A stretch of DNA of 64,000 nucleotides from Nitrospinota bacterium (GTDB lineage Bacteria; UBA8248): NCBI GenBank assembly GCA_036231405.1, contig JAZAHK010000002.1, positions 39,857 through 103,856 of the forward strand, in the 5' to 3' direction. A program made the position numbers and the translations under genes. This document shows positions 34,183 to 44,802 of the stretch, in pieces. Within the stretch, counting starts at the first letter, position 1. Every line of letters begins with the position of its first letter. Below the pieces are notes generated by a model. It was not told the DNA's origin and did not search any database. It worked only from the letters and a program-made list of their open reading frames with translations.

Positions 34183-36078
34183 GTGCTTACGTATTTAAGA
34201 AGTAAAGGAAATTCTCTAATTTTAAAAGCGCTACTAGCATTTGTAGCGTTAACATTCGTCACTTGGGGAGGATTTTCTCTCTCTCAGGGACCTAGTTCTA
34301 ATGCCGCAAGAATTGCAATTCAGGTAGATGACTCTTCTATTTCCATTAAGGATTTTGAAGCTCGGTATTTGATTAAAATGGAGGCCATGAGAAAACAATT
34401 GGGCCCTCTTTTTAACGAAGAACTTGTCAAGAAAATGGGTTTTAGGAAGAGTATTTTTAGCAGTATGGTTATCGAGTTATTGCAAATCAAGGAATCGAAA
34501 AGGTTAGGGATATCTGTTTCCAAAGAGGAAGTACGCTCAATAATAGAAGATATGCCACATTTTAAGAGGAGTGGAAAGTTTGACTCCAATTTATATTTTA
34601 AATTACTAGATTCGAATAGAGTTACTCCAAAAATGTTTGAGAATGATATTGAAAATCAGCTTATTCTTCAGCGTCTTAGAGATTATGTTGGACTCGGTGT
34701 CTCGGTTGATGAAGAGGATGTTTTAGAATCTTTTAGATTCGATAATGATATGACCGCTATACAATATGTTGATTTGAATTTTAATTTTTTTGAAAAGAAT
34801 GTTTCGTTGACGAAGGCAAAACTAGAAAAATTTTATACAAAGAAGAAAGAGGATTTTCGAGTAGCTGAAAAGAGAAACGTAAGATGGTGGTACATTTCAT
34901 ACGGTTCTGTTAAGTCAAAGATTGAAATTTCTGAATCTAAAATTAAGGCTAGATACTCCCAGACTAAAAATCGTTACAAAGTCAAAGGCAAGGCGGAATT
35001 AAGTCAAATATTTTTAAAAAGTTCTCCTGGCGTTTCTAAAGAAGAATTAGTTAAATTAGAAAAATCATTAGCTTCGATAAGACAACGAATAGAGAATGGG
35101 GAGAATTTTTCCGAATTAGCTAAAATATATTCTCAAGGACCTGCAGCAAAGAAGGGTGGTAATCTTGGAATAGTCAATGAATCCGATATACTTCCAGAAA
35201 TTCGTAAGTATTTAAATAAGATGAAAAAAGGAGAACTTAGTGTTCCGATCAAATCTTCTTTTGGTTTTCATCTTGTGTTTCTGAAGGATAGAAAAAAAGG
35301 ACGTCTAAAAAGTTTGGAAGAAGTCCGAACAGAGGTAAAGAAGGATATTTTGAATATAAGTGCACCTGGTTATGCGGAGAATTTTTTGAAAAAAATAAGA
35401 TATGCTTATGAAGATAATAAGAAACTACCTGAAGTTGGAACTTTAGTAGAGGGAGAAAGTGGGTTTTTCGAAGAGAAAGATCCGCCGAAATTTATTCCTG
35501 ATAAAGAACTGTTGTCAGATCTTTCCTTTTCTTTATCTAGGAAGAATAAAATTTCTCGTGAAAAGAAAGGGAAAAACGGGGTGATGTTTGTTTCACTGTT
35601 AGGAAAGAAGAGTTCGGTTATCCCTGAATTTTCGACAATTTTAAGTAAAGTGAAGAAAAAATTTGTTGTTCAAGAAAGCGAAAAGCTTGCAAAGATAGAG
35701 GCAGAAAAATATTTGGGAAAATTAAGAACTGGGGTAAGTTCACTAAATCAAATCTCAAAAGATTTTGATGTGAAAATTGAAAAGACCAAGAAATTCTCTA
35801 GGTCAAGGGTTCCAATTTTTCTTCAGAACAATAGAAAGGAAATATCTGAATTATTCTCTTTTGGAAAAAATAAGTTTGGGAAAATTATTCTTCCTAATAA
35901 GTTTATTTTGTTCAAGGTTTTGATTGATCCTAGTAGTGACATGAAGAATTATGATAAACAAAAAGTAGAAATCAGAAAGAGGGTTTTAGAAGAGAAGAGA
36001 TCCCTTCTGTACAATCGTTATTTGCAGTCCTTAAGACAGTCTTCGAAAATTCTTTTGGGTCCAGGATTTAAACTTTAA
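34183..36078 (+). CDS. ppiD: Membrane-anchored periplasmic chaperone/PPIase, PpiD/SurA-like
   Basis: N-terminal TM (MLTYLR..FVTWG), SurA_N region, parvulin motif FSELAKIYSQGPAAKKGGNLG and SSFGFHLV; divergent from mreB. Confidence 0.8.
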   Translation: MLTYLRSKGNSLILKALLAFVALTFVTWGGFSLSQGPSSNAARIAIQVDDSSISIKDFEARYLIKMEAMRKQLGPLFNEELVKKMGFRKSIFSSMVIELLQIKESKRLGISVSKEEVRSIIEDMPHFKRSGKFDSNLYFKLLDSNRVTPKMFENDIENQLILQRLRDYVGLGVSVDEEDVLESFRFDNDMTAIQYVDLNFNFFEKNVSLTKAKLEKFYTKKKEDFRVAEKRNVRWWYISYGSVKSKIEISESKIKARYSQTKNRYKVKGKAELSQIFLKSSPGVSKEELVKLEKSLASIRQRIENGENFSELAKIYSQGPAAKKGGNLGIVNESDILPEIRKYLNKMKKGELSVPIKSSFGFHLVFLKDRKKGRLKSLEEVRTEVKKDILNISAPGYAENFLKKIRYAYEDNKKLPEVGTLVEGESGFFEEKDPPKFIPDKELLSDLSFSLSRKNKISREKKGKNGVMFVSLLGKKSSVIPEFSTILSKVKKKFVVQESEKLAKIEAEKYLGKLRTGVSSLNQISKDFDVKIEKTKKFSRSRVPIFLQNNRKEISELFSFGKNKFGKIILPNKFILFKVLIDPSSDMKNYDKQKVEIRKRVLEEKRSLLYNRYLQSLRQSSKILLGPGFKL

Positions 36079-36099
36079 TATAGATTGTTTTAAATTCAA

Positions 36100-36414
36100 T
36101 CAATCCCAAAAGTCTTTCTTGTCTTCCTCTCTGAATGTGTGTTTTTCCTTTACTCGTTCTTCAAATGTTTTGTTCGCTTGCTCTTTTTGAATCTTTTGTT
36201 TCTCAAATAAATCGCTGAATTCGATCTTCTTTTTGTTTTTTGCTTCTAGGAAGGGGTCTTTAATTTGATGTCTTGACATTGAAGCTATTTGATTAGTTAT
36301 TTGGATTTTTATCTTATGACCCGACACAATTCCAAGTTTCTTCATTATCTCTTTTGATAGGTAGATTCTACCTTTGTCTCCAACATCTAGAATGTAAGTA
36401 TGCTCATCTGACAT
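36100..36414 (-). CDS. Small protein with N-terminal AbrB/MazE/SpoVT-type DNA-binding domain and charged helical tail
   Basis: VGDKGRIYLSKEIMKKLGIVSGHKI matches the swapped-hairpin pattern; GGAGG RBS upstream. Confidence 0.6.
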   Translation of the reverse strand: MSDEHTYILDVGDKGRIYLSKEIMKKLGIVSGHKIKIQITNQIASMSRHQIKDPFLEAKNKKKIEFSDLFEKQKIQKEQANKTFEERVKEKHTFREEDKKDFWD

Positions 36415-36480
36415 TGTCTTGCCTCCAGTTTTTTTTCGACTTTTTCAAATCCATAATATGTAAAAATTAAAAGAACCTCT

Positions 36481-37317
36481 TTAAGAGGAATTAGGCTTTC
36501 TACGTTTTCTTAAAACATGCATATGATTTAGTGGTCCTTGACCTCTCCCAATCGTGAGAGAAGATTCTATACATTTCTGTATAAAATCTTTTGCATCTTT
36601 AATCGCACTCCTTAAAGAGAGTCCGTGAGCTAGACCGCATGCAATTGCAGAAGAGAGCGTACAGCCAGTTCCATGGGTATTCTTTGTGTCGACAAAAATC
36701 CCTTTGTAAGTATAGCAAGTGGAGCCATAACATAAAATATCAGTAGATCCTCCTTGTAAATGCCCACCTTTGAGTAGAACGGCTTTTGGACCTATCCTTT
36801 TTATATTTCTCGATATTTCTTTCATTTCGTTGATTGTTTTCACTTCGTCCTTTAATTTTAGTATTTGTTTGGCCTCTTCGATATTTGGAGTTATGAGCGT
36901 AGCTAATGGAAAAAGTTCGTTAATTAGACATGGAATAGAATTCTTAGACAACAGTTTATCTCCAGTTTTCGAAAGCATTACGGGATCTACAATAACATTT
37001 GGTATTTTATATTTTTCAATCATTTCACAAACAACCTTAATGGTCTTCTTGTTGACAAGCATTCCAACCTTGAGTGCGTCAATGGGGAAGTCTGTACAAA
37101 CAGAATCAATTTGTTTTTTGATAACATCTACTGGAATAGGAACAATTTTTTGAATTTTAAAAGTATTTTGCGCTGTTATGGCAGTTATTACAGAAGTTCC
37201 ATATACATCAAAAACAGTGAATGTTTTTAGATCAGCTTGTATTCCTGCGCCTCCAGAAGAGTCAGAGCCGGCTATCGATAATGCGACAGGGAGTTTTTTT
37301 CTTTTTCTATTTTTCAA
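36481..37317 (-). CDS. thiD: Hydroxymethylpyrimidine/phosphomethylpyrimidine kinase
   Basis: [48 protein letters not shown]. Confidence 0.96.
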
Positions 37318-37408
37318 AAAATTGTCCTTAAACGATTTATTCTTAAACTTTTTTATATATCACAGAATTAGTTGATGCAATTATAAATGAAATATGTGAA
37401 TTAAAATA

Positions 37409-37442
37409 TATTCTTGACAAAAATATTTAGGAATAATAACGT
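37409..37442 (+). promoter_or_regulatory. sigma70 promoter of the cys operon with overlapping Rrf2-type inverted repeat
   Basis: TTGACA(37414-37419)-17 nt-TAACGT(37437-37442); dyad TATTCTTGA-N9-TTAGGAATA at 37409-37435; AGGAGAGG RBS before TTG 37478. Confidence 0.65.
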
Positions 37443-37477
37443 TATAAAGTTTTTTATATTTAGGAGAGGATTAACTA

Positions 37478-38440
37478 TTGAGTCCTTCTGGTATAAGAGG
37501 TAGACCTCCAAAGTTTTCGAGAATCCTCCCCGATGTTCTTAGTCGGGTCGGTTCAACACCTTTAATAGAGTTGAAAAAACTCCCTGATAGTAATGGCGCG
37601 CGTGTTTTTGCAAAAATAGAACAATTGAATCCTGGTGGAAGTGTAAAAGATCGAATTGCTCTAAATATGGTCCTCGATGCTGAAAGACGAGGTCTGATAG
37701 AAAAAGGTTCCACTATTATAGAACCTACAAGTGGGAATACTGGTATTGGGTTGGCAATGGTTGGTGCTGTCCTGGGTTATAATGTAATTATTGTACTAAG
37801 CGAGAGCATGAGTCATGAGAGAAAGTCGATTCTGGCGAATTTTGGCGCAGAGGTTATTTTGAGTCCCAGTGAAGGGGGAATGTATGGTTCTGTAGTTAAA
37901 GCGAATGAAATTCTCTCAGAGAATCCTGGTTTTTACATGCCACAACAGTTTAATAATCAAGCCAATCCAGAGGTACATAGAAACTATACGGTTAGAGAGA
38001 TTCTTCGCGATATGGGTCCAAAAACTGTAGGTGCATTTGTTGCGGGTGTAGGAACTGGTGGAACAATCACGGGTGTTGGTGACGTTCTAAAGTCAATAAA
38101 TTCAGGAACCATGATTGTTGCTGTTGAACCTAAAGGCTGTGCAGTTTTATCAGGTGAAAAACCAGGACCACACCGAATACAGGGCATTGGAGCTGGTTTT
38201 ATCCCTAATGTTTTAAACTTGGATTTAATAGATAAAATTAAGACAGTTTCTGATCAGGATGCCTATGATTTTTCAAAAGCCTTAAGCAAGGAAGAAGGAA
38301 TTCTCGCAGGAATTTCTTCTGGGGCCGCTACTTTTGCAGCTGTATCGATTGCAAGTGAAATGTCTAGAGAAGAAAATGTTGTCGTGATTTTACCTGATAG
38401 TGCTGAGCGTTATTATAGTTTGGAGCCCTATTTTGGATGA
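37478..38440 (+). CDS. cysK: Cysteine synthase A (O-acetylserine sulfhydrylase)
   Basis: NPGGSVKDR (PLP Lys), EPTSGNTG, QQFNNQANP, GVGTGGT, CysK-type HRIQGIGAGFIP, GISSGA. Confidence 0.93.
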   Translation: MSPSGIRGRPPKFSRILPDVLSRVGSTPLIELKKLPDSNGARVFAKIEQLNPGGSVKDRIALNMVLDAERRGLIEKGSTIIEPTSGNTGIGLAMVGAVLGYNVIIVLSESMSHERKSILANFGAEVILSPSEGGMYGSVVKANEILSENPGFYMPQQFNNQANPEVHRNYTVREILRDMGPKTVGAFVAGVGTGGTITGVGDVLKSINSGTMIVAVEPKGCAVLSGEKPGPHRIQGIGAGFIPNVLNLDLIDKIKTVSDQDAYDFSKALSKEEGILAGISSGAATFAAVSIASEMSREENVVVILPDSAERYYSLEPYFG

Positions 38441-38484
38441 ATTGTGTTTTTTATTTTAGGTTCGTAATTTTATGGGAGAAAAAT

Positions 38485-38763
38485 ATGGCAATTGTCATTC
38501 GAATACCTACCCCCCTACAGGAGTTTTCTGAAAATAGAGAAACTGTTGAAGTGGAAAGTGATAATGTTAAAGACGCTCTAGAAGCTTTAGATGCTGAATG
38601 TCCAGGTATCAAGAGTAGATTATATGATGAAGATGGGAAACTACGTCGTTTTGTCAATATTTACGTTAATCAGGAAGATATACGTTTTTTGAAAGGCGAA
38701 GGAACGTTGTTGAACGAGACTGATGAAATATCTATTATTCCAGCAATAGCTGGTGGAATTTAA
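38485..38763 (+). CDS. MoaD/CysO-type ubiquitin-like sulfur carrier, precursor ending GG-I
   Basis: IRIPTPL, RRFVNIYVNQEDIRFL, IIPAIAGG-I; ATG 38485 after GGGAG gives 92 aa. Confidence 0.9.
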   Translation: MAIVIRIPTPLQEFSENRETVEVESDNVKDALEALDAECPGIKSRLYDEDGKLRRFVNIYVNQEDIRFLKGEGTLLNETDEISIIPAIAGGI

Positions 38764-38833
38764 CTGGTGGGGTCGACCACTCTGGCCCGAGCAATAATTA
38801 TCAGTTGCAGTTGTTTTTAGAGAAGGATTTCTC

Positions 38834-39766
38834 ATGAGTAGATTTGAAATTGAGTCATCGGTGACACCTTTTAAAGATATAGAAAATTCACAGATCCTCA
38901 AACAGATTGGAAACACACCACTTCTGAAAGTTGAACTTTTCAAAGATGAATTTCCCGATGTTGAAGTTTATGGGAAAGCAGAGTGGTTTAATCCGGGAGG
39001 TTCTGTGAAGGACAGACCAGCACTCAATATGGTTAAAGAAGGAATAAATTCTGGAGTTCTTTGCCCAGGGAAGGTATTGTTAGATTCTACGAGCGGGAAT
39101 ACTGGCATTGCATACGCTATGATAGGTGCTGCATTGAATATTCCCATTTCCCTTGTAATACCAGAAAATGCAAGTTCTGAACGTATAGAAACTTTGAAAA
39201 AGTATGGTGCAGATTTGATTTTTTCAAGTCCTATGGAAGGATCAGACGGTGCACAACGAATGGCAAGAAAATTATACGAAGAAAATCCAGATTTATTTTT
39301 TATGCCATGCCAGTATGACAACTCGTTCAACCCGTTAGCACACGAAGAGACTACAGCCTTAGAGATTCTTGATCAAACGGATGGAAAAGTTCAGCATTTT
39401 GTTGCAAGTCTAGGCACTACGGGAACTCTGGTAGGTACAGGACGTGGGTTGAAGAAAAACAAGCCTGACGTGAAAGTTCATGCTGTTATGCCTTCCGAAC
39501 CTTTTCATGGCTTAGAGGGAATGAAACACATCCCATCCTCTATTCGACCAGGGATATATGATGTTGCAGTTCATGATAATTTGATTCTTTCAGGCACTGA
39601 ATCTAGTTATGATTATGCTGAGAAAATTTCTATTAAGGAGGGATTGTTTGTTGGACACTCTTCTGGGGCAGCCCTCGTAGGAGTTCATGAAGTAGCAAAA
39701 TCAATTAAAAAGGGTGTGATAGTAACAATTTTTCCAGATGGTGGAGATCGTTACCTTGCACCTTAA
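38834..39766 (+). CDS. cysM: Second cysteine synthase-family PLP enzyme (CysM-like, likely carrier-dependent)
   Basis: NPGGSVKDR, DSTSGNTG, LGTTGT, GLEGMKH (basic residue instead of CysK QGIGAG), PDGGDRYL; flanked by carrier and JAMM genes. Confidence 0.75.
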   Translation: MSRFEIESSVTPFKDIENSQILKQIGNTPLLKVELFKDEFPDVEVYGKAEWFNPGGSVKDRPALNMVKEGINSGVLCPGKVLLDSTSGNTGIAYAMIGAALNIPISLVIPENASSERIETLKKYGADLIFSSPMEGSDGAQRMARKLYEENPDLFFMPCQYDNSFNPLAHEETTALEILDQTDGKVQHFVASLGTTGTLVGTGRGLKKNKPDVKVHAVMPSEPFHGLEGMKHIPSSIRPGIYDVAVHDNLILSGTESSYDYAEKISIKEGLFVGHSSGAALVGVHEVAKSIKKGVIVTIFPDGGDRYLAP

Positions 39767-39778
39767 TCGAGGATGTAA

Positions 39779-40258
39779 TTGAGACTTTTAAGGAAACAAA
39801 CAGACCTGATTTTTTCACACGCGGAATCTAACTATCCAGATGAGTGTTGTGGTTTGATTGTGGGTCCTAAAGGTGAAGATTCTGATCTCGGGGATTTTGA
39901 AATTATTTTGTGCCGTAATATTCAGAATGATATGCATAAATTGGATCCAGAGACCTATCCTAGGACAGCACGTACAGCTTTTTTAATTGAGCCAAAAGAG
40001 TTTCTTCGTATTGATAATTCTGCAAAAGAAGGGAAGGTTTTAAAGGCTATATTCCACAGCCATCCTGATGAAGAATCGTATTTTTCAGATGAAGATAAAA
40101 GGGCGGCTGTCCCTTTTGGAGATATTCCCACTTTTCCTGATGCTAATCATGTAGTTATTAGCATTCGTCAAAATGAAGTAAAAGAAACAAAAGTGTTCGC
40201 CTGGGATCAAGGGAAAAAGAATTTTGTCCAGAGGGTTTTTAATGTTGTCGATGATTAG
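39779..40258 (+). CDS. mec: JAMM/MPN+ (M67) zinc metallopeptidase, Mec+-like
   Basis: YPDECCG and HSHP-x6-S-x2-D (HSHPDEESYFSDED); TTG start after GAGG. Confidence 0.88.
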   Translation: MRLLRKQTDLIFSHAESNYPDECCGLIVGPKGEDSDLGDFEIILCRNIQNDMHKLDPETYPRTARTAFLIEPKEFLRIDNSAKEGKVLKAIFHSHPDEESYFSDEDKRAAVPFGDIPTFPDANHVVISIRQNEVKETKVFAWDQGKKNFVQRVFNVVDD

Positions 40259-40287
40259 ATCCTTTTCAAAGTCTGTAGAGGTAAAAA

Positions 40288-40755
40288 TTGAAGGTATCGA
40301 CAAAAGGTAGATATGCTGTAATGGCAATGGTTGAATTGGCTCTTTTTTCGCAATCGGAGCCAGTCTCCTTGTCCCAGATAGCAAGAAGACTAAATATTAG
40401 CCAAAGTTATCTTGAGCAACTTTTCGTAAAGATGAGAAGGTCTAGTTTAGTTAGAAGCACTCGAGGACCTGGAGGTGGTTATGTGCTTGCAAAACCGCCT
40501 GCTGAAATTGATATGAAAACATTACTTTGTTCAGTTGGGGAATCGATCGTTCCCGTTGACATAAATCTTGAAAATGGAGGTTTGAAAAGTTCTGGTAATG
40601 AGAATTTGGCTAGTCTGGGTAGTCAATTTTTGTGGAAAGAACTCGAAGGTTCTATTGATAAAACTCTCTCGAGGATATCTCTTGCTGATCTTTGCTCTTC
40701 TGCAGAAAATTCCTTAAGGAAGGCTAAGTATCCAGATTTTCAAGTTGGTATATAG
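40288..40755 (+). CDS. Rrf2-family transcriptional regulator without Fe-S ligands (CymR-like)
   Basis: STKGRYAV, SYLEQLF, STRGPGGGY; the three IscR cluster cysteines are absent; ends QVGI. Confidence 0.9.
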   Translation: MKVSTKGRYAVMAMVELALFSQSEPVSLSQIARRLNISQSYLEQLFVKMRRSSLVRSTRGPGGGYVLAKPPAEIDMKTLLCSVGESIVPVDINLENGGLKSSGNENLASLGSQFLWKELEGSIDKTLSRISLADLCSSAENSLRKAKYPDFQVGI

Positions 40756-40792
40756 TTTTTTATAGTCTCTTTTTTGGAAGGAACAATTCAAA

Positions 40793-41827
40793 ATGACATT
40801 TGAAAAGGTAAGAGCAGCATCTATGGGTTTGGGCCGTTGGGCGAATGTTTTAGCAGATGCAGCTAAACGTGGTGGAAAGATAGACTTGGTTTCATGTTTT
40901 AGTAGGACAGAAGAAAAAAGGAAAATTTTTATGGAATGTTATGATACGAGAGCAGCTAGTTCTTTTGAAGAATTTCTTAAGGATGATGAAATTGAAGCTG
41001 TGATTTTAACTACCCCTAACTATGCACACAGAGAGCATATAGAAGCAATATCTGATTCTGGGAAACATATATATTGTGAGAAACCCATTGCTCATAGTTT
41101 GGAAGACTCTAAAAAAATAGTGGAAACTGTTAGTAGTTCAGGTATTAAACTTGCAGTTGGACATAGTGCGAGGAGGCTATCTATATGTAGAGAAATGAAA
41201 AGTCTCGTTGATAACGGTGCTCTTGGAAAGATCTCTATGAATGAAAGTAATTTTTGCACTGAAAGGGGTCTTGAATTAACTCCAGGTTTATGGCGTTCCG
41301 ATCCGGCATTGAACCCTACAGGCGTGGTTATCCAACTTTCCATTCATCATATTGATACGTTAAGGTTTATGCATGGTCCTATAAAAGAAGTTACTGCAGT
41401 TTTAAGGAGTATTCATACAAAAGCCGACGTGGAAGACGCATCGATGATTGTCATGGAACATGATTCTGGTGTGATTTCCTACGTAGGTTCTGGATGGTCC
41501 TGCCCTTGGGCTTTCCATATGAATATTCATGGCACAGAGGGAATTGCACATTTTCGTATTACAGGTCAACAGTGGAGGGATCCTTCAAAATCTCCCGTTC
41601 CCATAAGATTGCATATTGACAGAGATCCGTTAGGAGAAGATACGGTTTCAGACATGGTTGAAGGAGATATGTTCCGTGATGCATTAGAAGATTTTGCAAT
41701 TTGTGTTAGAGAAGATAGAAGTCCAGAAGTAGATGAGAAAATTGCACACGAATCGCTCGCAGTTGTGCATGCTGCATCAGAAAGCTCAAAATCAAGAAAA
41801 ACAGTGAGTGTTAAAGATTTTCTTTAG
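40793..41827 (+). CDS. Gfo/Idh/MocA family oxidoreductase
   Basis: GLGRWA Rossmann start, TTPN..H, CEKP, IHHID. Confidence 0.88.
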   Translation: MTFEKVRAASMGLGRWANVLADAAKRGGKIDLVSCFSRTEEKRKIFMECYDTRAASSFEEFLKDDEIEAVILTTPNYAHREHIEAISDSGKHIYCEKPIAHSLEDSKKIVETVSSSGIKLAVGHSARRLSICREMKSLVDNGALGKISMNESNFCTERGLELTPGLWRSDPALNPTGVVIQLSIHHIDTLRFMHGPIKEVTAVLRSIHTKADVEDASMIVMEHDSGVISYVGSGWSCPWAFHMNIHGTEGIAHFRITGQQWRDPSKSPVPIRLHIDRDPLGEDTVSDMVEGDMFRDALEDFAICVREDRSPEVDEKIAHESLAVVHAASESSKSRKTVSVKDFL

Positions 41828-41829
41828 TT

Positions 41830-42807
41830 TTAAATTTTTATTTGACGAACAAACTCTTTATTCTGTAGATGCCAAGCCACTACTTTTTTTATTCCATCCA
41901 TAAATGAAGTTTTTGGAACCCAATTCAGTATTTCTTTAGCCTTCTTAATATTAGCCCATGTGGCAAAAACATCGCTTTCAAATTTATCCTTAAACTCTAA
42001 GTTCGCCTTCATTCCCGTTTCTTGTTCAATTATTGAGATAACGTCTAGTAATTTAATGGGATTGTCAGAGCCAAGATTGAAAGTTTCAAGACCAACCCTT
42101 CTAAGGGAACTGATTGTTCCTTTTGCAATATCATCAACAAAGGTGAAATCCCTTTTTTGTTGACCATCACCATATATCTGAATTGGATCACCTTCGATTA
42201 TCCATTTTATGAACCTGAAGATGCTCATATCCGGTCTTCCTGCAGGACCGTACACAGTAAAAAATCGTAAGATGCTAATATCTGTTCCAAAAAGATAATT
42301 ATATGTTTTGCAGAGGTCTTCAGCTGATTTTTTGGAAGCAGCATAAGGTGATAGGAAAATATCTGTATCGCTCTTCTCTGAAAAAGGAATTATATCAGAT
42401 TCTCCATAAATACTAGAGCTTGATGCAAGAACAAATTTTCCTATTTCAAATTTTTTGCATAATTCTAAAAGATTGAGTGTTCCTAACACATTTGTTTCAT
42501 AATAAATACGAGGATTCTCCACTGATTTTCTCACACCAGCATGAGCCGCAAGATTAATAATGGCTTCAAAATTCTTTTTTGTTTTTGATACAAATTTATC
42601 TAATATCTTGTGGTCATAAATATCAATTTCTTCATATATGAAATTAGAAAATGTTTTTAGTTGCTTCAGTCTCCATTTCTTTAGTCTATTATCATAACTA
42701 TTATTTAAGTTATCTATCCCAACTACAAGATGTCCTTCCTGTAATAGGATTTCAGAAACTCTTGAACCTATGAATCCTGAAGTACCAGTAACTAGAAAGT
42801 CTGACAA
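41830..42807 (-). CDS. NAD-dependent nucleotide-sugar epimerase (UDP-glucuronate 4-epimerase-like)
   Basis: VTGTSGFIG, AGVRKS, ASSSSIYG, YAASK, RFFTVYGPAGRPDM; start set at TTG 42807 after AAGGA. Confidence 0.9.
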   Translation of the reverse strand: MSDFLVTGTSGFIGSRVSEILLQEGHLVVGIDNLNNSYDNRLKKWRLKQLKTFSNFIYEEIDIYDHKILDKFVSKTKKNFEAIINLAAHAGVRKSVENPRIYYETNVLGTLNLLELCKKFEIGKFVLASSSSIYGESDIIPFSEKSDTDIFLSPYAASKKSAEDLCKTYNYLFGTDISILRFFTVYGPAGRPDMSIFRFIKWIIEGDPIQIYGDGQQKRDFTFVDDIAKGTISSLRRVGLETFNLGSDNPIKLLDVISIIEQETGMKANLEFKDKFESDVFATWANIKKAKEILNWVPKTSFMDGIKKVVAWHLQNKEFVRQIKI

Positions 42808-42906
42808 ATGATATTCCTTTTCTTGTAAACAATTATCGAATTTTTTATTTTTCTTAATAGAGATTTCCAAAAGTAATTGAAAAAAGACATCACATTCTAT
42901 TGAAAA

Positions 42907-44802
42907 TCAGTAATTATACTCAACTCTATTTTTATCGCACCAACGAATTAGAACAAAAAGTGCCCAAGGTCTAGACCAAAATGAGTCATTTGAAGAGGAC
43001 AAGTATGATCTCCAGATCTTAGATATTTTTTCTGGAGATAATCCTAATTTCTCTTGTATTTCTATTCCCCCAATTAAAACCTCATCTACATTCTGTTTGA
43101 GTGATGTTCGAAGCCATTGATCAAAGGGTAGAGTGAATCCCATTTTCTTTCTGTTTTTTATTTCTTCTGGTATTAGATTACCCATAGAATCTATCAAAAT
43201 TGATTTTAATCTACTATCTTTAATTTTCCACTTTCCTGGAATTTGTGATGCGAAATTGTAGACCTCTTTGTCAATAAAGGGCACTCTTACTTCTAGTGAA
43301 TTTCCCATACTCATAAAATCAGTATCTCTCAATAGAGTGTTAGTCATGTATCCTTGCATTTCTAATTCTGACATCAGATTGACTGGATCTAAATCATTTT
43401 CATTTGCATATCCTTCGATGGCAGAAGAAGTTGCAGCATGTTTTATATTTGGAAGTAGTGCTTGTCTGTCATTTTGATTTAGAAGTTGTCTAGATATTTT
43501 ATAAAGTGAATGAATATTAGGATCGCTTCCTATTAACTCGAAAGCTTTCATTTTATTGGTTGAATTTCTGAATAGAAGTTGTGCTGATTTTGCGAGTAAT
43601 CTTTTTGGTATGTTTGGTATGTATTTCAAATAGTTTAGTTTAGATATTCTTGAAAAACTCGAATATCCGGCAAACAATTCATCTGCGCCAAGGCCTGACA
43701 GAGCTACAGTAATACCTGCTTTTTTCACAGCTTTAGATATTACATAGGTATTTACCCCGTCCATTGTAGGCTGATCCATGCAATCTAAGGCTTCTGGAGT
43801 CATATTAAGAATTTCACTTTCAGAAAGTAGAATTTCAGAGTGATTTGTTTTGTATTTTCTTGCTATTTGTTTTGCGAAGATATTTTCGGTATATTTTTTT
43901 TGTTCAAACACGACACTAAAAGTGTTGATAGGCTTTTTGTTTGTCTCATGCATAAGGGCAACAATTGTACTAGAATCTATTCCTCCTGATAAAAATACCC
44001 CAAGAGGGACATCACTCATTAAGTGAGAACTTACAGAATCTCTTAAAATATTATATAAATCTTTTGAAGTCTCAGAATATGTTTTTAGACTGATTTCTTT
44101 TTCTTTTGATGTTTTCTTACCTCTAAAACTTTCTTTCCTTATACTTAGAGAATCTCCTAACTTAATTTCAAGGTACTCACCAGGCATTAATGAATAAATA
44201 TCTTCTATTATTGTATTTGGAGAAATTACTGAACCAAATTCCAGATATGATTCAAGTCCTTGTTGACTAAGTTTTCTAGGAATTAATTCACTTGCAAGTA
44301 AGGAACGAATTTCTGAGGAGTAGATAAATTGGTTTTCTTTATAGTAAAAGTAAAGGGGTTTGATTCCAAATTGGTCTCTAGCCAAAATTAATGTTTTTCT
44401 CTGATGATCCCAAATTGAAAATGCAAACATGCCTCTAATTTTTTCAAGGCATGCTATACCCCATTGATTGAAACATTTCAGAATTACCTCTGTATCGCTA
44501 GTCGATTTCCATTCCGATTTCTCTTGCATCTCATTTCTTAATCTAGAATAGTTGTAAACTTCTCCATTGTAACATATTGTATTTAAAGTTCTTGTGTCTG
44601 TCATTGGTTGATTTGCATTATGACTTAAATCAATAATCGATAGTCTAGTGTGTCCTAGGCCTATTTCCCAATTATTATGTAAGAGAATCTTTTTCCCATT
44701 ACTATCAGGACCTCTGTGTTTTTGAATACTGATCATTTTTTCTAAGATATCTGCAGTGTTGTAACTGCTTTTCTTAGAAATGATTCCAGCTATGCCACAC
44801 AT
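42907..44802 (-). CDS. asnB: Glutamine-dependent amidotransferase, asparagine synthase family (probably glycan amidation)
   Basis: MCGIAG Ntn nucleophile, HRGPD, NGEVYN, LSGGIDSS, SGLGADELF, EVRVPF; embedded in glycan locus. Confidence 0.93.
   Translation of the reverse strand: MCGIAGIISKKSSYNTADILEKMISIQKHRGPDSNGKKILLHNNWEIGLGHTRLSIIDLSHNANQPMTDTRTLNTICYNGEVYNYSRLRNEMQEKSEWKSTSDTEVILKCFNQWGIACLEKIRGMFAFSIWDHQRKTLILARDQFGIKPLYFYYKENQFIYSSEIRSLLASELIPRKLSQQGLESYLEFGSVISPNTIIEDIYSLMPGEYLEIKLGDSLSIRKESFRGKKTSKEKEISLKTYSETSKDLYNILRDSVSSHLMSDVPLGVFLSGGIDSSTIVALMHETNKKPINTFSVVFEQKKYTENIFAKQIARKYKTNHSEILLSESEILNMTPEALDCMDQPTMDGVNTYVISKAVKKAGITVALSGLGADELFAGYSSFSRISKLNYLKYIPNIPKRLLAKSAQLLFRNSTNKMKAFELIGSDPNIHSLYKISRQLLNQNDRQALLPNIKHAATSSAIEGYANENDLDPVNLMSELEMQGYMTNTLLRDTDFMSMGNSLEVRVPFIDKEVYNFASQIPGKWKIKDSRLKSILIDSMGNLIPEEIKNRKKMGFTLPFDQWLRTSLKQNVDEVLIGGIEIQEKLGLSPEKISKIWRSYLSSSNDSFWSRPWALFVLIRWCDKNRVEYNY

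Follow-up and report, generated by a model that had tools for sequence, protein, structure and literature searches.

A cysK-cysO-cysM-mec-rrf2 operon of an uncultured Nitrospinaceae bacterium and its isoleucine-tailed Rrf2 regulator, a putative partner of CysK

When two proteins encoded in the same cysteine operon both end in isoleucine, is either terminus a ligand of the cysteine synthase CysK? The question is raised by a stretch of 64,000 nucleotides (hereafter, the window) of a Nitrospinota bacterium (GenBank assembly GCA_036231405.1, contig JAZAHK010000002.1, positions 39,857 to 103,856 of the forward strand). It comes from an uncultured member of the Nitrospinaceae and carries a cysK-cysO-cysM-mec-rrf2 operon in which a sulfur carrier ends in AIAGGI and a regulator of the Rrf2 family ends in DFQVGI. 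A C-terminal isoleucine is the anchor in CysK docking (PMC9547175, PMC5562914). The original prediction for this DNA was that the two tails compete for CysK. The half that concerns the regulator was supported by conservation, its isoleucine being invariant among orthologues, and the half that concerns the carrier was not, the corresponding residue being variable. We consider it reasonably probable that the operon joins a carrier-dependent pathway of cysteine synthesis to cysK, that a CymR-like repressor docks on CysK through its tail, and that the isoleucine of the carrier is a mere cap.

Open reading frames (ORFs) of the window were read from their translations, and families were assigned from Pfam and NCBIfam profile scores compared with curated cut-offs. 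The five ORFs of the compact operon that had been announced are all present, on the + strand. The first gene, cysK (37478-38440), encodes O-acetylserine sulfhydrylase A and passes the cut-off of TIGR01139 (403.4 bits for 350.95), with 247.3 bits for PALP. Its start codon is TTG, after the ribosome-binding site AGGAGAGG, and an ATG is found at the equivalent position in same-genus relatives. It is followed by the genes of a CysO-type ThiS/MoaD sulfur carrier of 92 residues (38485-38763; PF02597, 62.4 bits), of a second, CysM-like pyridoxal phosphate-dependent cysteine synthase (38834-39766; best NCBIfam model cysM, TIGR01138, 311.6 bits, below the cut-off of 394.2), of a Mec-like metalloprotease of the Prok-JAB/JAMM (MPN+) type (39779-40258; PF14464, 58.8 bits, cut-off 25) and, finally, of the Rrf2-family regulator, 155 residues long (40288-40755; PF02082, 103.9 bits, cut-off 30). 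This gene order is conserved across the family, and the regulator gene closes the conserved part of the operon in 20/20 family loci extending that far, all 20 of which encode a protein ending in isoleucine. Taken alone, two isoleucine ends are marginally unusual. Indeed, isoleucine is the last residue in 7.2% of the 1401 ORFs of at least 200 residues in the host genome, so that at least two of five operon proteins would end in it by chance with P = 0.045. It is the comparison with relatives, not the window alone, that decides: the isoleucine of the regulator is not due to chance, and that of the carrier is.

In the regulator, the terminal isoleucine, I155, is invariant in an alignment of 46 orthologous sequences (46/46), where it ends the motif P-x-F-Q-V-[S/G]-I (P149-D-F-Q-V-G-I155 in the window, codons at 40732-40752, + strand). 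Conservation follows an alternating pattern: the entropy at positions -1, -3, -5 and -7 from the C-terminus is 0-0.43 bits, with P149, F151 and V153 nearly invariant (0.15-0.43), whereas it reaches 2.3-2.9 bits in the 11-residue linker formed by positions 137-147. The AlphaFold2 model (mean predicted local distance difference test score, pLDDT, of 80.8) has a helix-turn-helix and a long dimer helix, that is, the Rrf2 winged-helix fold; it is devoid of secondary structure after residue 142, and residues 143-155, with pLDDT values of 44-53, are predicted to be disordered. An invariant tail borne by a variable, disordered linker is typical of a short linear motif on a tether. In a large protein search, isoleucine is the last residue of all 44 full-length orthologues (50% identity or more) and of a further, more distant orthologue; of the other two sequences in this tier, one is an 85-residue fragment and one differs at its C-terminus. 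The 73 Rrf2 matches that come next are IscR-like, carry a cysteine triad, and in no case (0/73) end in isoleucine. In one locus (L034, genome G015), the orthologue is split over two frames (residues 1-39 and 57-155), probably because of a frameshift or an assembly error.

A precedent for such a tail is found in CymR of Staphylococcus aureus. Its C-terminal decapeptide, EDLDGYMFYI, was crystallised in the active site of CysK, to which it binds with a dissociation constant of 25 nM (preprint, 10.1101/2024.09.19.614015), and the insertion of the terminal isoleucine of the MFYI end into CysK, on which the original prediction relied, is thereby borne out. Its other two examples, CysE and the toxin CdiA-CT of Escherichia coli, are right as to the role of the C-terminal isoleucine, and the letters quoted for them (GDGI and GYGI) were not found in PMC5562914. 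In the CymR peptide, alanine at -1 or -3 abolishes binding to CysK, and alanine at -2, -4 or -5 weakens it (10.1101/2024.09.19.614015); it is at -1 and -3 that the tail of the Nitrospinaceae orthologues varies least. CymR, which forms a complex with CysK in Bacillus subtilis as well as in S. aureus, is a global regulator that CysK stabilises on DNA, with O-acetylserine as the signal (PMC2940859).

The Nitrospinaceae protein resembles CymR in being an Rrf2 protein, a putative repressor of cysteine genes, with a C-terminal peptide ending in isoleucine, in having conserved hydrophobic residues at -1, -3 and -5 and, in the genus of the window, in being devoid of iron-sulfur (Fe-S) cluster ligands. 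It differs from CymR in being closer to the IscR model, CymR structures aligning only over the 79-92 N-terminal residues; in its tail, F-Q-V-[S/G]-I instead of Y-M-F-Y-I; in the three cysteines that many Nitrospinaceae orthologues keep; and in its setting, a cysK-cysO-cysM-mec operon in the phylum Nitrospinota and apparently a single genomic site, whereas CymR acts globally. The parts of the system are already known ones in a new setting, a probable regulator of the CymR/CysK kind placed inside a CysO-type operon. Since the tail shares its alternating hydrophobic pattern with the crystallised S. aureus peptide, docking of the regulator in CysK is plausible.

Genomic context is consistent with CysK being the partner. 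In a scan of species-representative genomes that gave 80 Rrf2 loci, five encode proteins ending in isoleucine, and all five lie in cysK-carrier-cysM-JAMM clusters of Nitrospinaceae/Nitrospinota. The other 75, mostly alphaproteobacterial IscR, include neither an isoleucine end nor a nearby cysK; among them is a Nitrospinota locus (L104) with a carrier, a CysM-type synthase and an Rrf2 protein, without CysK, in which the Rrf2 protein ends in VRSNL. The docking isoleucine of CysE, moreover, is lacking. CysE of the host ends in TPGQ, and a CysE ending in isoleucine occurs in 0/16 genomes of the family and in 1/20 genomes overall. This makes a canonical CysE-CysK complex unlikely and would leave the docking site of CysK to the regulator. 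The docking principle would be the same as in the cysteine synthase complex, and the V-S-I end found in the family resembles the DFSI tail of Mycobacterium tuberculosis CysE seen in CysK1 (PMC9547175); the difference is that here CysE has no C-terminal isoleucine. Finally, a complex of CysK (29-row alignment) with residues 116-155 of the regulator (41 rows used) was predicted, together with three controls. The score had a median of 0.50, against 0.00 for the best control, no interface being reported; the pLDDT of the partner was at least 54 and at least 92% of the contacts were common to the runs. The mark of 0.50 is reached by 58/80 solved complexes and by 2/110 mismatched pairs, and the range from the mark to 0.60 holds only 7 of the 80 solved complexes plus both mismatches.

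Upstream of cysK, a 34-bp promoter/operator box (37409-37442, + strand) is kept in 24/24 family loci, despite flanks that have diverged and differ in composition. A perfect -35 hexamer, TTGACA, and the -10 region flank a conserved spacer of 17 bp, whose last letters are GGAAT. The operon as delimited by the original prediction began at 37409, which is the exact first base of this box. Within it are 5-bp inverted arms, TATTC...GAATA, and the arms pair perfectly in 11/24 loci. They are AATTC/GAATT in most loci and TATTC/GAATA in the genus of the window, so that the change has occurred on both sides. A position weight matrix (PWM) finds the box once in the 2.09-Mb host genome, at 37409-37442 (41.0 bits; next best site, 14.6 bits). 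It has one match per family locus and none in 11 loci of more distant relatives. We infer that the regulator binds this box; if so, it would be local and self-regulating, unlike the global CymR.

The following mechanism can be proposed. By a first route, CysK would make cysteine from O-acetylserine and sulfide. A second route would use the carrier, as in the mycobacterial CysO system: the JAMM protease would first trim the single residue beyond GG, an E1 of the rhodanese-MoeB type would adenylate and thiocarboxylate the carrier, the CysM-like enzyme would build cysteine on it, and the JAMM protease would then release the cysteine. The Rrf2 protein would be a CymR-like repressor whose disordered tail, P-x-F-Q-V-[S/G]-I, puts its terminal isoleucine into the active site of CysK. 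Bound to CysK, it would sit on the operator, where the -35 and -10 elements of the operon promoter also lie. On shortage of sulfur or cysteine, O-acetylserine would accumulate, fill CysK and free the tail, and both routes, as well as the regulator itself, would be de-repressed. If this is true, sensing of the cysteine supply at the active site of CysK, so far described for CymR in Bacillales, reaches as far as Nitrospinota, the chief nitrite oxidisers of the sea, and probably also many uncultured lineages. A single O-acetylserine-sensing repressor would then govern the free-sulfide and the protein-thiocarboxylate routes, in a family that probably lacks a CysE-CysK complex.

Several points weigh against this explanation. 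As to the regulator, it scores higher with the curated IscR model (TIGR02010, 117.8 bits) than with the CymR model (NF047409, 97.8 bits), and reaches neither cut-off (207.55 and 195, respectively). Many orthologues from larger genomes have three cysteines at the IscR ligand positions, and an Fe-S signal may be their primary input. Because the orthologues are kin, the counts given above overstate the independent events, which are few. As to the partner, a distant Rrf2 protein of another family (L054) ends in isoleucine with no cysK within 5 kb, and the score of 0.50 for CysK and the tail is a weak one, which may reflect likeness rather than binding, since CysK-peptide complexes are among the solved structures. 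As to the box, the PWM matches in family loci are partly circular, the matrix having been built from those sites; it includes the promoter hexamers, so that weaker half-sites could escape it, and a unique match neither proves a one-gene regulon nor identifies the bound protein. Finally, the carrier route needs an E1, and no ThiF-family E1 was matched in the 91.9%-complete host assembly. A same-genus genome has a rhodanese-MoeB E1 (400 residues, 541 bits), and the neighbour of that gene maps 214 nt from the end of host contig C28, so that the host gene probably lies in an assembly gap.

The tail could be conserved for another partner or another purpose: the CysM-like enzyme, a further CysK-like protein, fold-back of the regulator on itself, or turnover, the effector being sensed otherwise. 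We hold this to be unlikely, while giving it some weight. The host genome does encode three CysK/CysM-family proteins, the third being a CysK-like paralogue of 355 residues (G000:C40:9194-10261, L096:1195-2262) that scores 339.7 bits with TIGR01139, just below the cut-off; the weak complex score and the isoleucine end at L054 without an adjacent cysK also point this way. However, the tail resembles peptides known to bind CysK and not other sites. In one relative (genome G013, loci L051 / L025), only some 156 nt of cysM are left (matching residues 243-309), yet cysK, the carrier, the JAMM protease and the isoleucine-tailed regulator remain. The gene is complete in the sister genome G009, and either a true deletion or a misassembly of the metagenome-assembled genome could account for the remnant. 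Besides, in the Nitrospinota cluster mentioned above that has CysM but lacks CysK, the Rrf2 protein has no terminal isoleucine. These observations favour CysK as the partner. The third paralogue adjoins a luciferase-like F420/FMN oxidoreductase.

An improbable alternative is that the regulator is a plain Fe-S regulator of the IscR type that came to stand in the operon by happenstance, with its tail an inherited feature of the lineage that has no sensing role. Its best curated model and its best solved relatives are of the IscR type and, as said, three cysteines stand at the IscR positions in many orthologues. Nevertheless, the window protein has only two cysteines, C81 and C136, neither of which aligns with the IscR-like three-cysteine cluster, so that the lack of IscR ligands noticed in the original prediction is confirmed at all three aligned positions. 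Several lineages, among them the genus of the window and another one, have lost these ligands, but no lineage that lost them lost the tail. The contrast in entropy between linker and tail and the lack of isoleucine ends among the IscR-like sequence neighbours also argue against a merely inherited feature. Moreover, a separate gene beside a cysteine desulfurase gene elsewhere in the genome (G000:C6; L069:1420-1917, - strand) encodes a second Rrf2 protein with several cysteines, ending in AGEIK, which is likely the true IscR.

A profile search of 1.84 billion representatives (clustered at 50% identity) was made, and the 150 nearest Rrf2 proteins were taken. Among these (P0241-P0389), 32/150 end in isoleucine, and an aromatic residue stands at -3 in 23/32 of them vs. 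6/118 of the others. Their tails are mostly of the form aromatic-x-aromatic-x-Ile, and many of these proteins also have the cysteine triad. Ten isoleucine-tailed representatives were compared with NCBIfam; none reaches the CymR or the IscR cut-off, the CymR scores being 92-148 bits. Source names of the cluster members include Tectomicrobia and 'Deltaproteobacteria', and among the pipeline labels is 'cysteine metabolism transcriptional repressor'. CysK-docking Rrf2 regulators may thus be common outside Bacillales and poorly captured by curated models. A broader proposal, which we make tentatively and hold to be possible but doubtful, is that the regulator belongs to a large unnamed Rrf2 class, between IscR and CymR, that joins the Fe-S cysteine triad to a CysK-docking hydrophobic-x-hydrophobic-x-Ile tail. 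Such proteins would integrate Fe-S status and O-acetylserine/sulfide status, and the present one would govern a combined sulfide and carrier operon in a lineage whose CysE gave up its docking tail.

The second isoleucine, that of the carrier, behaves differently from that of the regulator. The carrier is a beta-grasp ThiS/MoaD domain ending in GG with one further residue, isoleucine, and is thus of the CysO type. Among solved structures, M. tuberculosis CysO (3dwg_C, E 1.9e-16) is its best match; it aligns end to end and stops at GG. The carrier was found in 37/41 related genomes searched. A lone isoleucine follows GG in only 4/120 of its closest homologues; in the others, the residue is arginine (about 34), glutamate (9), valine (6) or leucine (5), among others, 10-11 have none, and several have longer extensions. 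The original prediction asked whether isoleucine is kept when cysK stands in the same operon, and named a random or absent residue after GG in close homologues as counting against it. For the carrier this is the outcome: in the 29 loci with a CysK orthologue directly upstream of the carrier, isoleucine was found in 2, for R in 10, L in 4 and F, D and V in 2 each, with H, G, C, VG, TH, KLWN and a long extension once each. Of the five nearest homologues (80-98% identity), two end in I, one in F and two in one and the same 11-residue extension, a same-genus feature that ends in Q. Since the residue after GG varies in relatives, selection keeps the cap, not the isoleucine: a short cap, usually of one residue, beside a JAMM protease is conserved, and its identity is not. 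In the explanation that we favour, the isoleucine of this strain is probably an arbitrary, interchangeable cap residue and not a signal. Longer extensions also occur in some close homologues (P0002, P0005, P0104-P0109, P0118), the same-genus one of 11 residues and hydrophobic ones of the ILIF type elsewhere.

That the unprocessed GG-I carrier and the VG-I regulator compete for CysK, removal of the carrier isoleucine by the JAMM protease coupling the two routes and transcription, is therefore very improbable and, as a conserved trait, can be rejected: GG-I is indeed the end of the carrier here and in one relative of the same genus, published CysK ligands all end in isoleucine and the JAMM motif is intact, but carriers of the same genus otherwise end in F or in the 11-residue extension, those of the family mostly in R and also in L, D, H, G or C, and replacing the terminal isoleucine by alanine in the S. 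aureus CymR peptide abolished CysK binding (10.1101/2024.09.19.614015). Likewise, the idea that cleavage by the JAMM protease would remove a CysK ligand is left without comparative support, because the isoleucine after GG is not conserved. Hence, a C-terminal isoleucine on a GG carrier is not evidence for CysK docking.

If the residue is a cap, it would have to be removed. The JAMM motif of the protease is intact, E22 / H93-S-H95-x7-S103-xx-D106 as read from the translation, and matches the motif quoted in PMC5925218. Removal of a cap by a neighbouring JAMM protease has precedent, since in QbsE/QbsD and CxnE/CxnF cleavage of extra residues by such a protease exposes the GG of the carrier for adenylation (PMC5925218). 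As in these systems, residues beyond GG and a JAMM gene are found in the same cluster; the differences are that the cap, here mostly a single residue, can be nearly any amino acid, and that cleavage is predicted. A one-residue cap, an alanine, is reportedly carried by the HcyS carrier of Wolinella (HcyS/HcyD), a point not confirmed in the literature searched.

A close known counterpart of these genes is mycobacterial mec+-cysO-cysM. Among solved structures the carrier is closest to CysO, its neighbours include a JAMM protease as well as a second cysteine synthase, and an E1 of the rhodanese-MoeB/MoeZ type occurs in the same-genus genome and in the operon of larger relatives. There, a second ThiF-family E1 is encoded between the JAMM and Rrf2 genes (L046:1819-3054, - strand; L036:7018-8157, + strand). 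Three differences should be mentioned. First, CysO ends at GG, whereas the carrier has one residue beyond it. Second, cysK and the Rrf2 regulator belong to the operon here. Third, the synthase does not resemble the O-phosphoserine-specific CysM of M. tuberculosis more than it does enteric CysM: its best solved relatives are OASS-B/CysM (2jc3, 2bhs), M. tuberculosis CysM (3dwg_A) being a weaker match (E 4.9e-43), and it is also under the cut-off of the cysKM subfamily. A review calls mycobacterial CysM specific to actinobacteria (PMC9547175). From its context, the second synthase is presumed to use the thiocarboxylate of the carrier. Larger-genome Nitrospinaceae have, between the carrier and cysM, an extra ORF of about 216-232 residues without a Pfam match (L036:5288-5986, + strand; L046:4336-4986, - strand), which is absent from the genus of the window.

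The literature searched, which covered few subscription papers and no supplements, gave nothing relevant on this arrangement in Nitrospina, or on Rrf2, CysK and isoleucine together outside Firmicutes. Within 36000-43000 of the window, no terminator-like site was found on the + strand, and no credible Rfam match to a riboswitch or another RNA element (best E 0.1). Downstream of the regulator gene lies that of a GFO/IDH/MocA oxidoreductase (40793-41827, + strand, assigned by Pfam matches), possibly co-transcribed with the operon; it has this place in several relatives, not in all. Upstream and divergent is thiD, encoding phosphomethylpyrimidine kinase (36481-37317, - strand; PF08543, 310.6 bits), which keeps the same position across the family loci. 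Between thiD and a ppiD-like gene is an ORF of 104 residues without a Pfam match (36100-36414, - strand).

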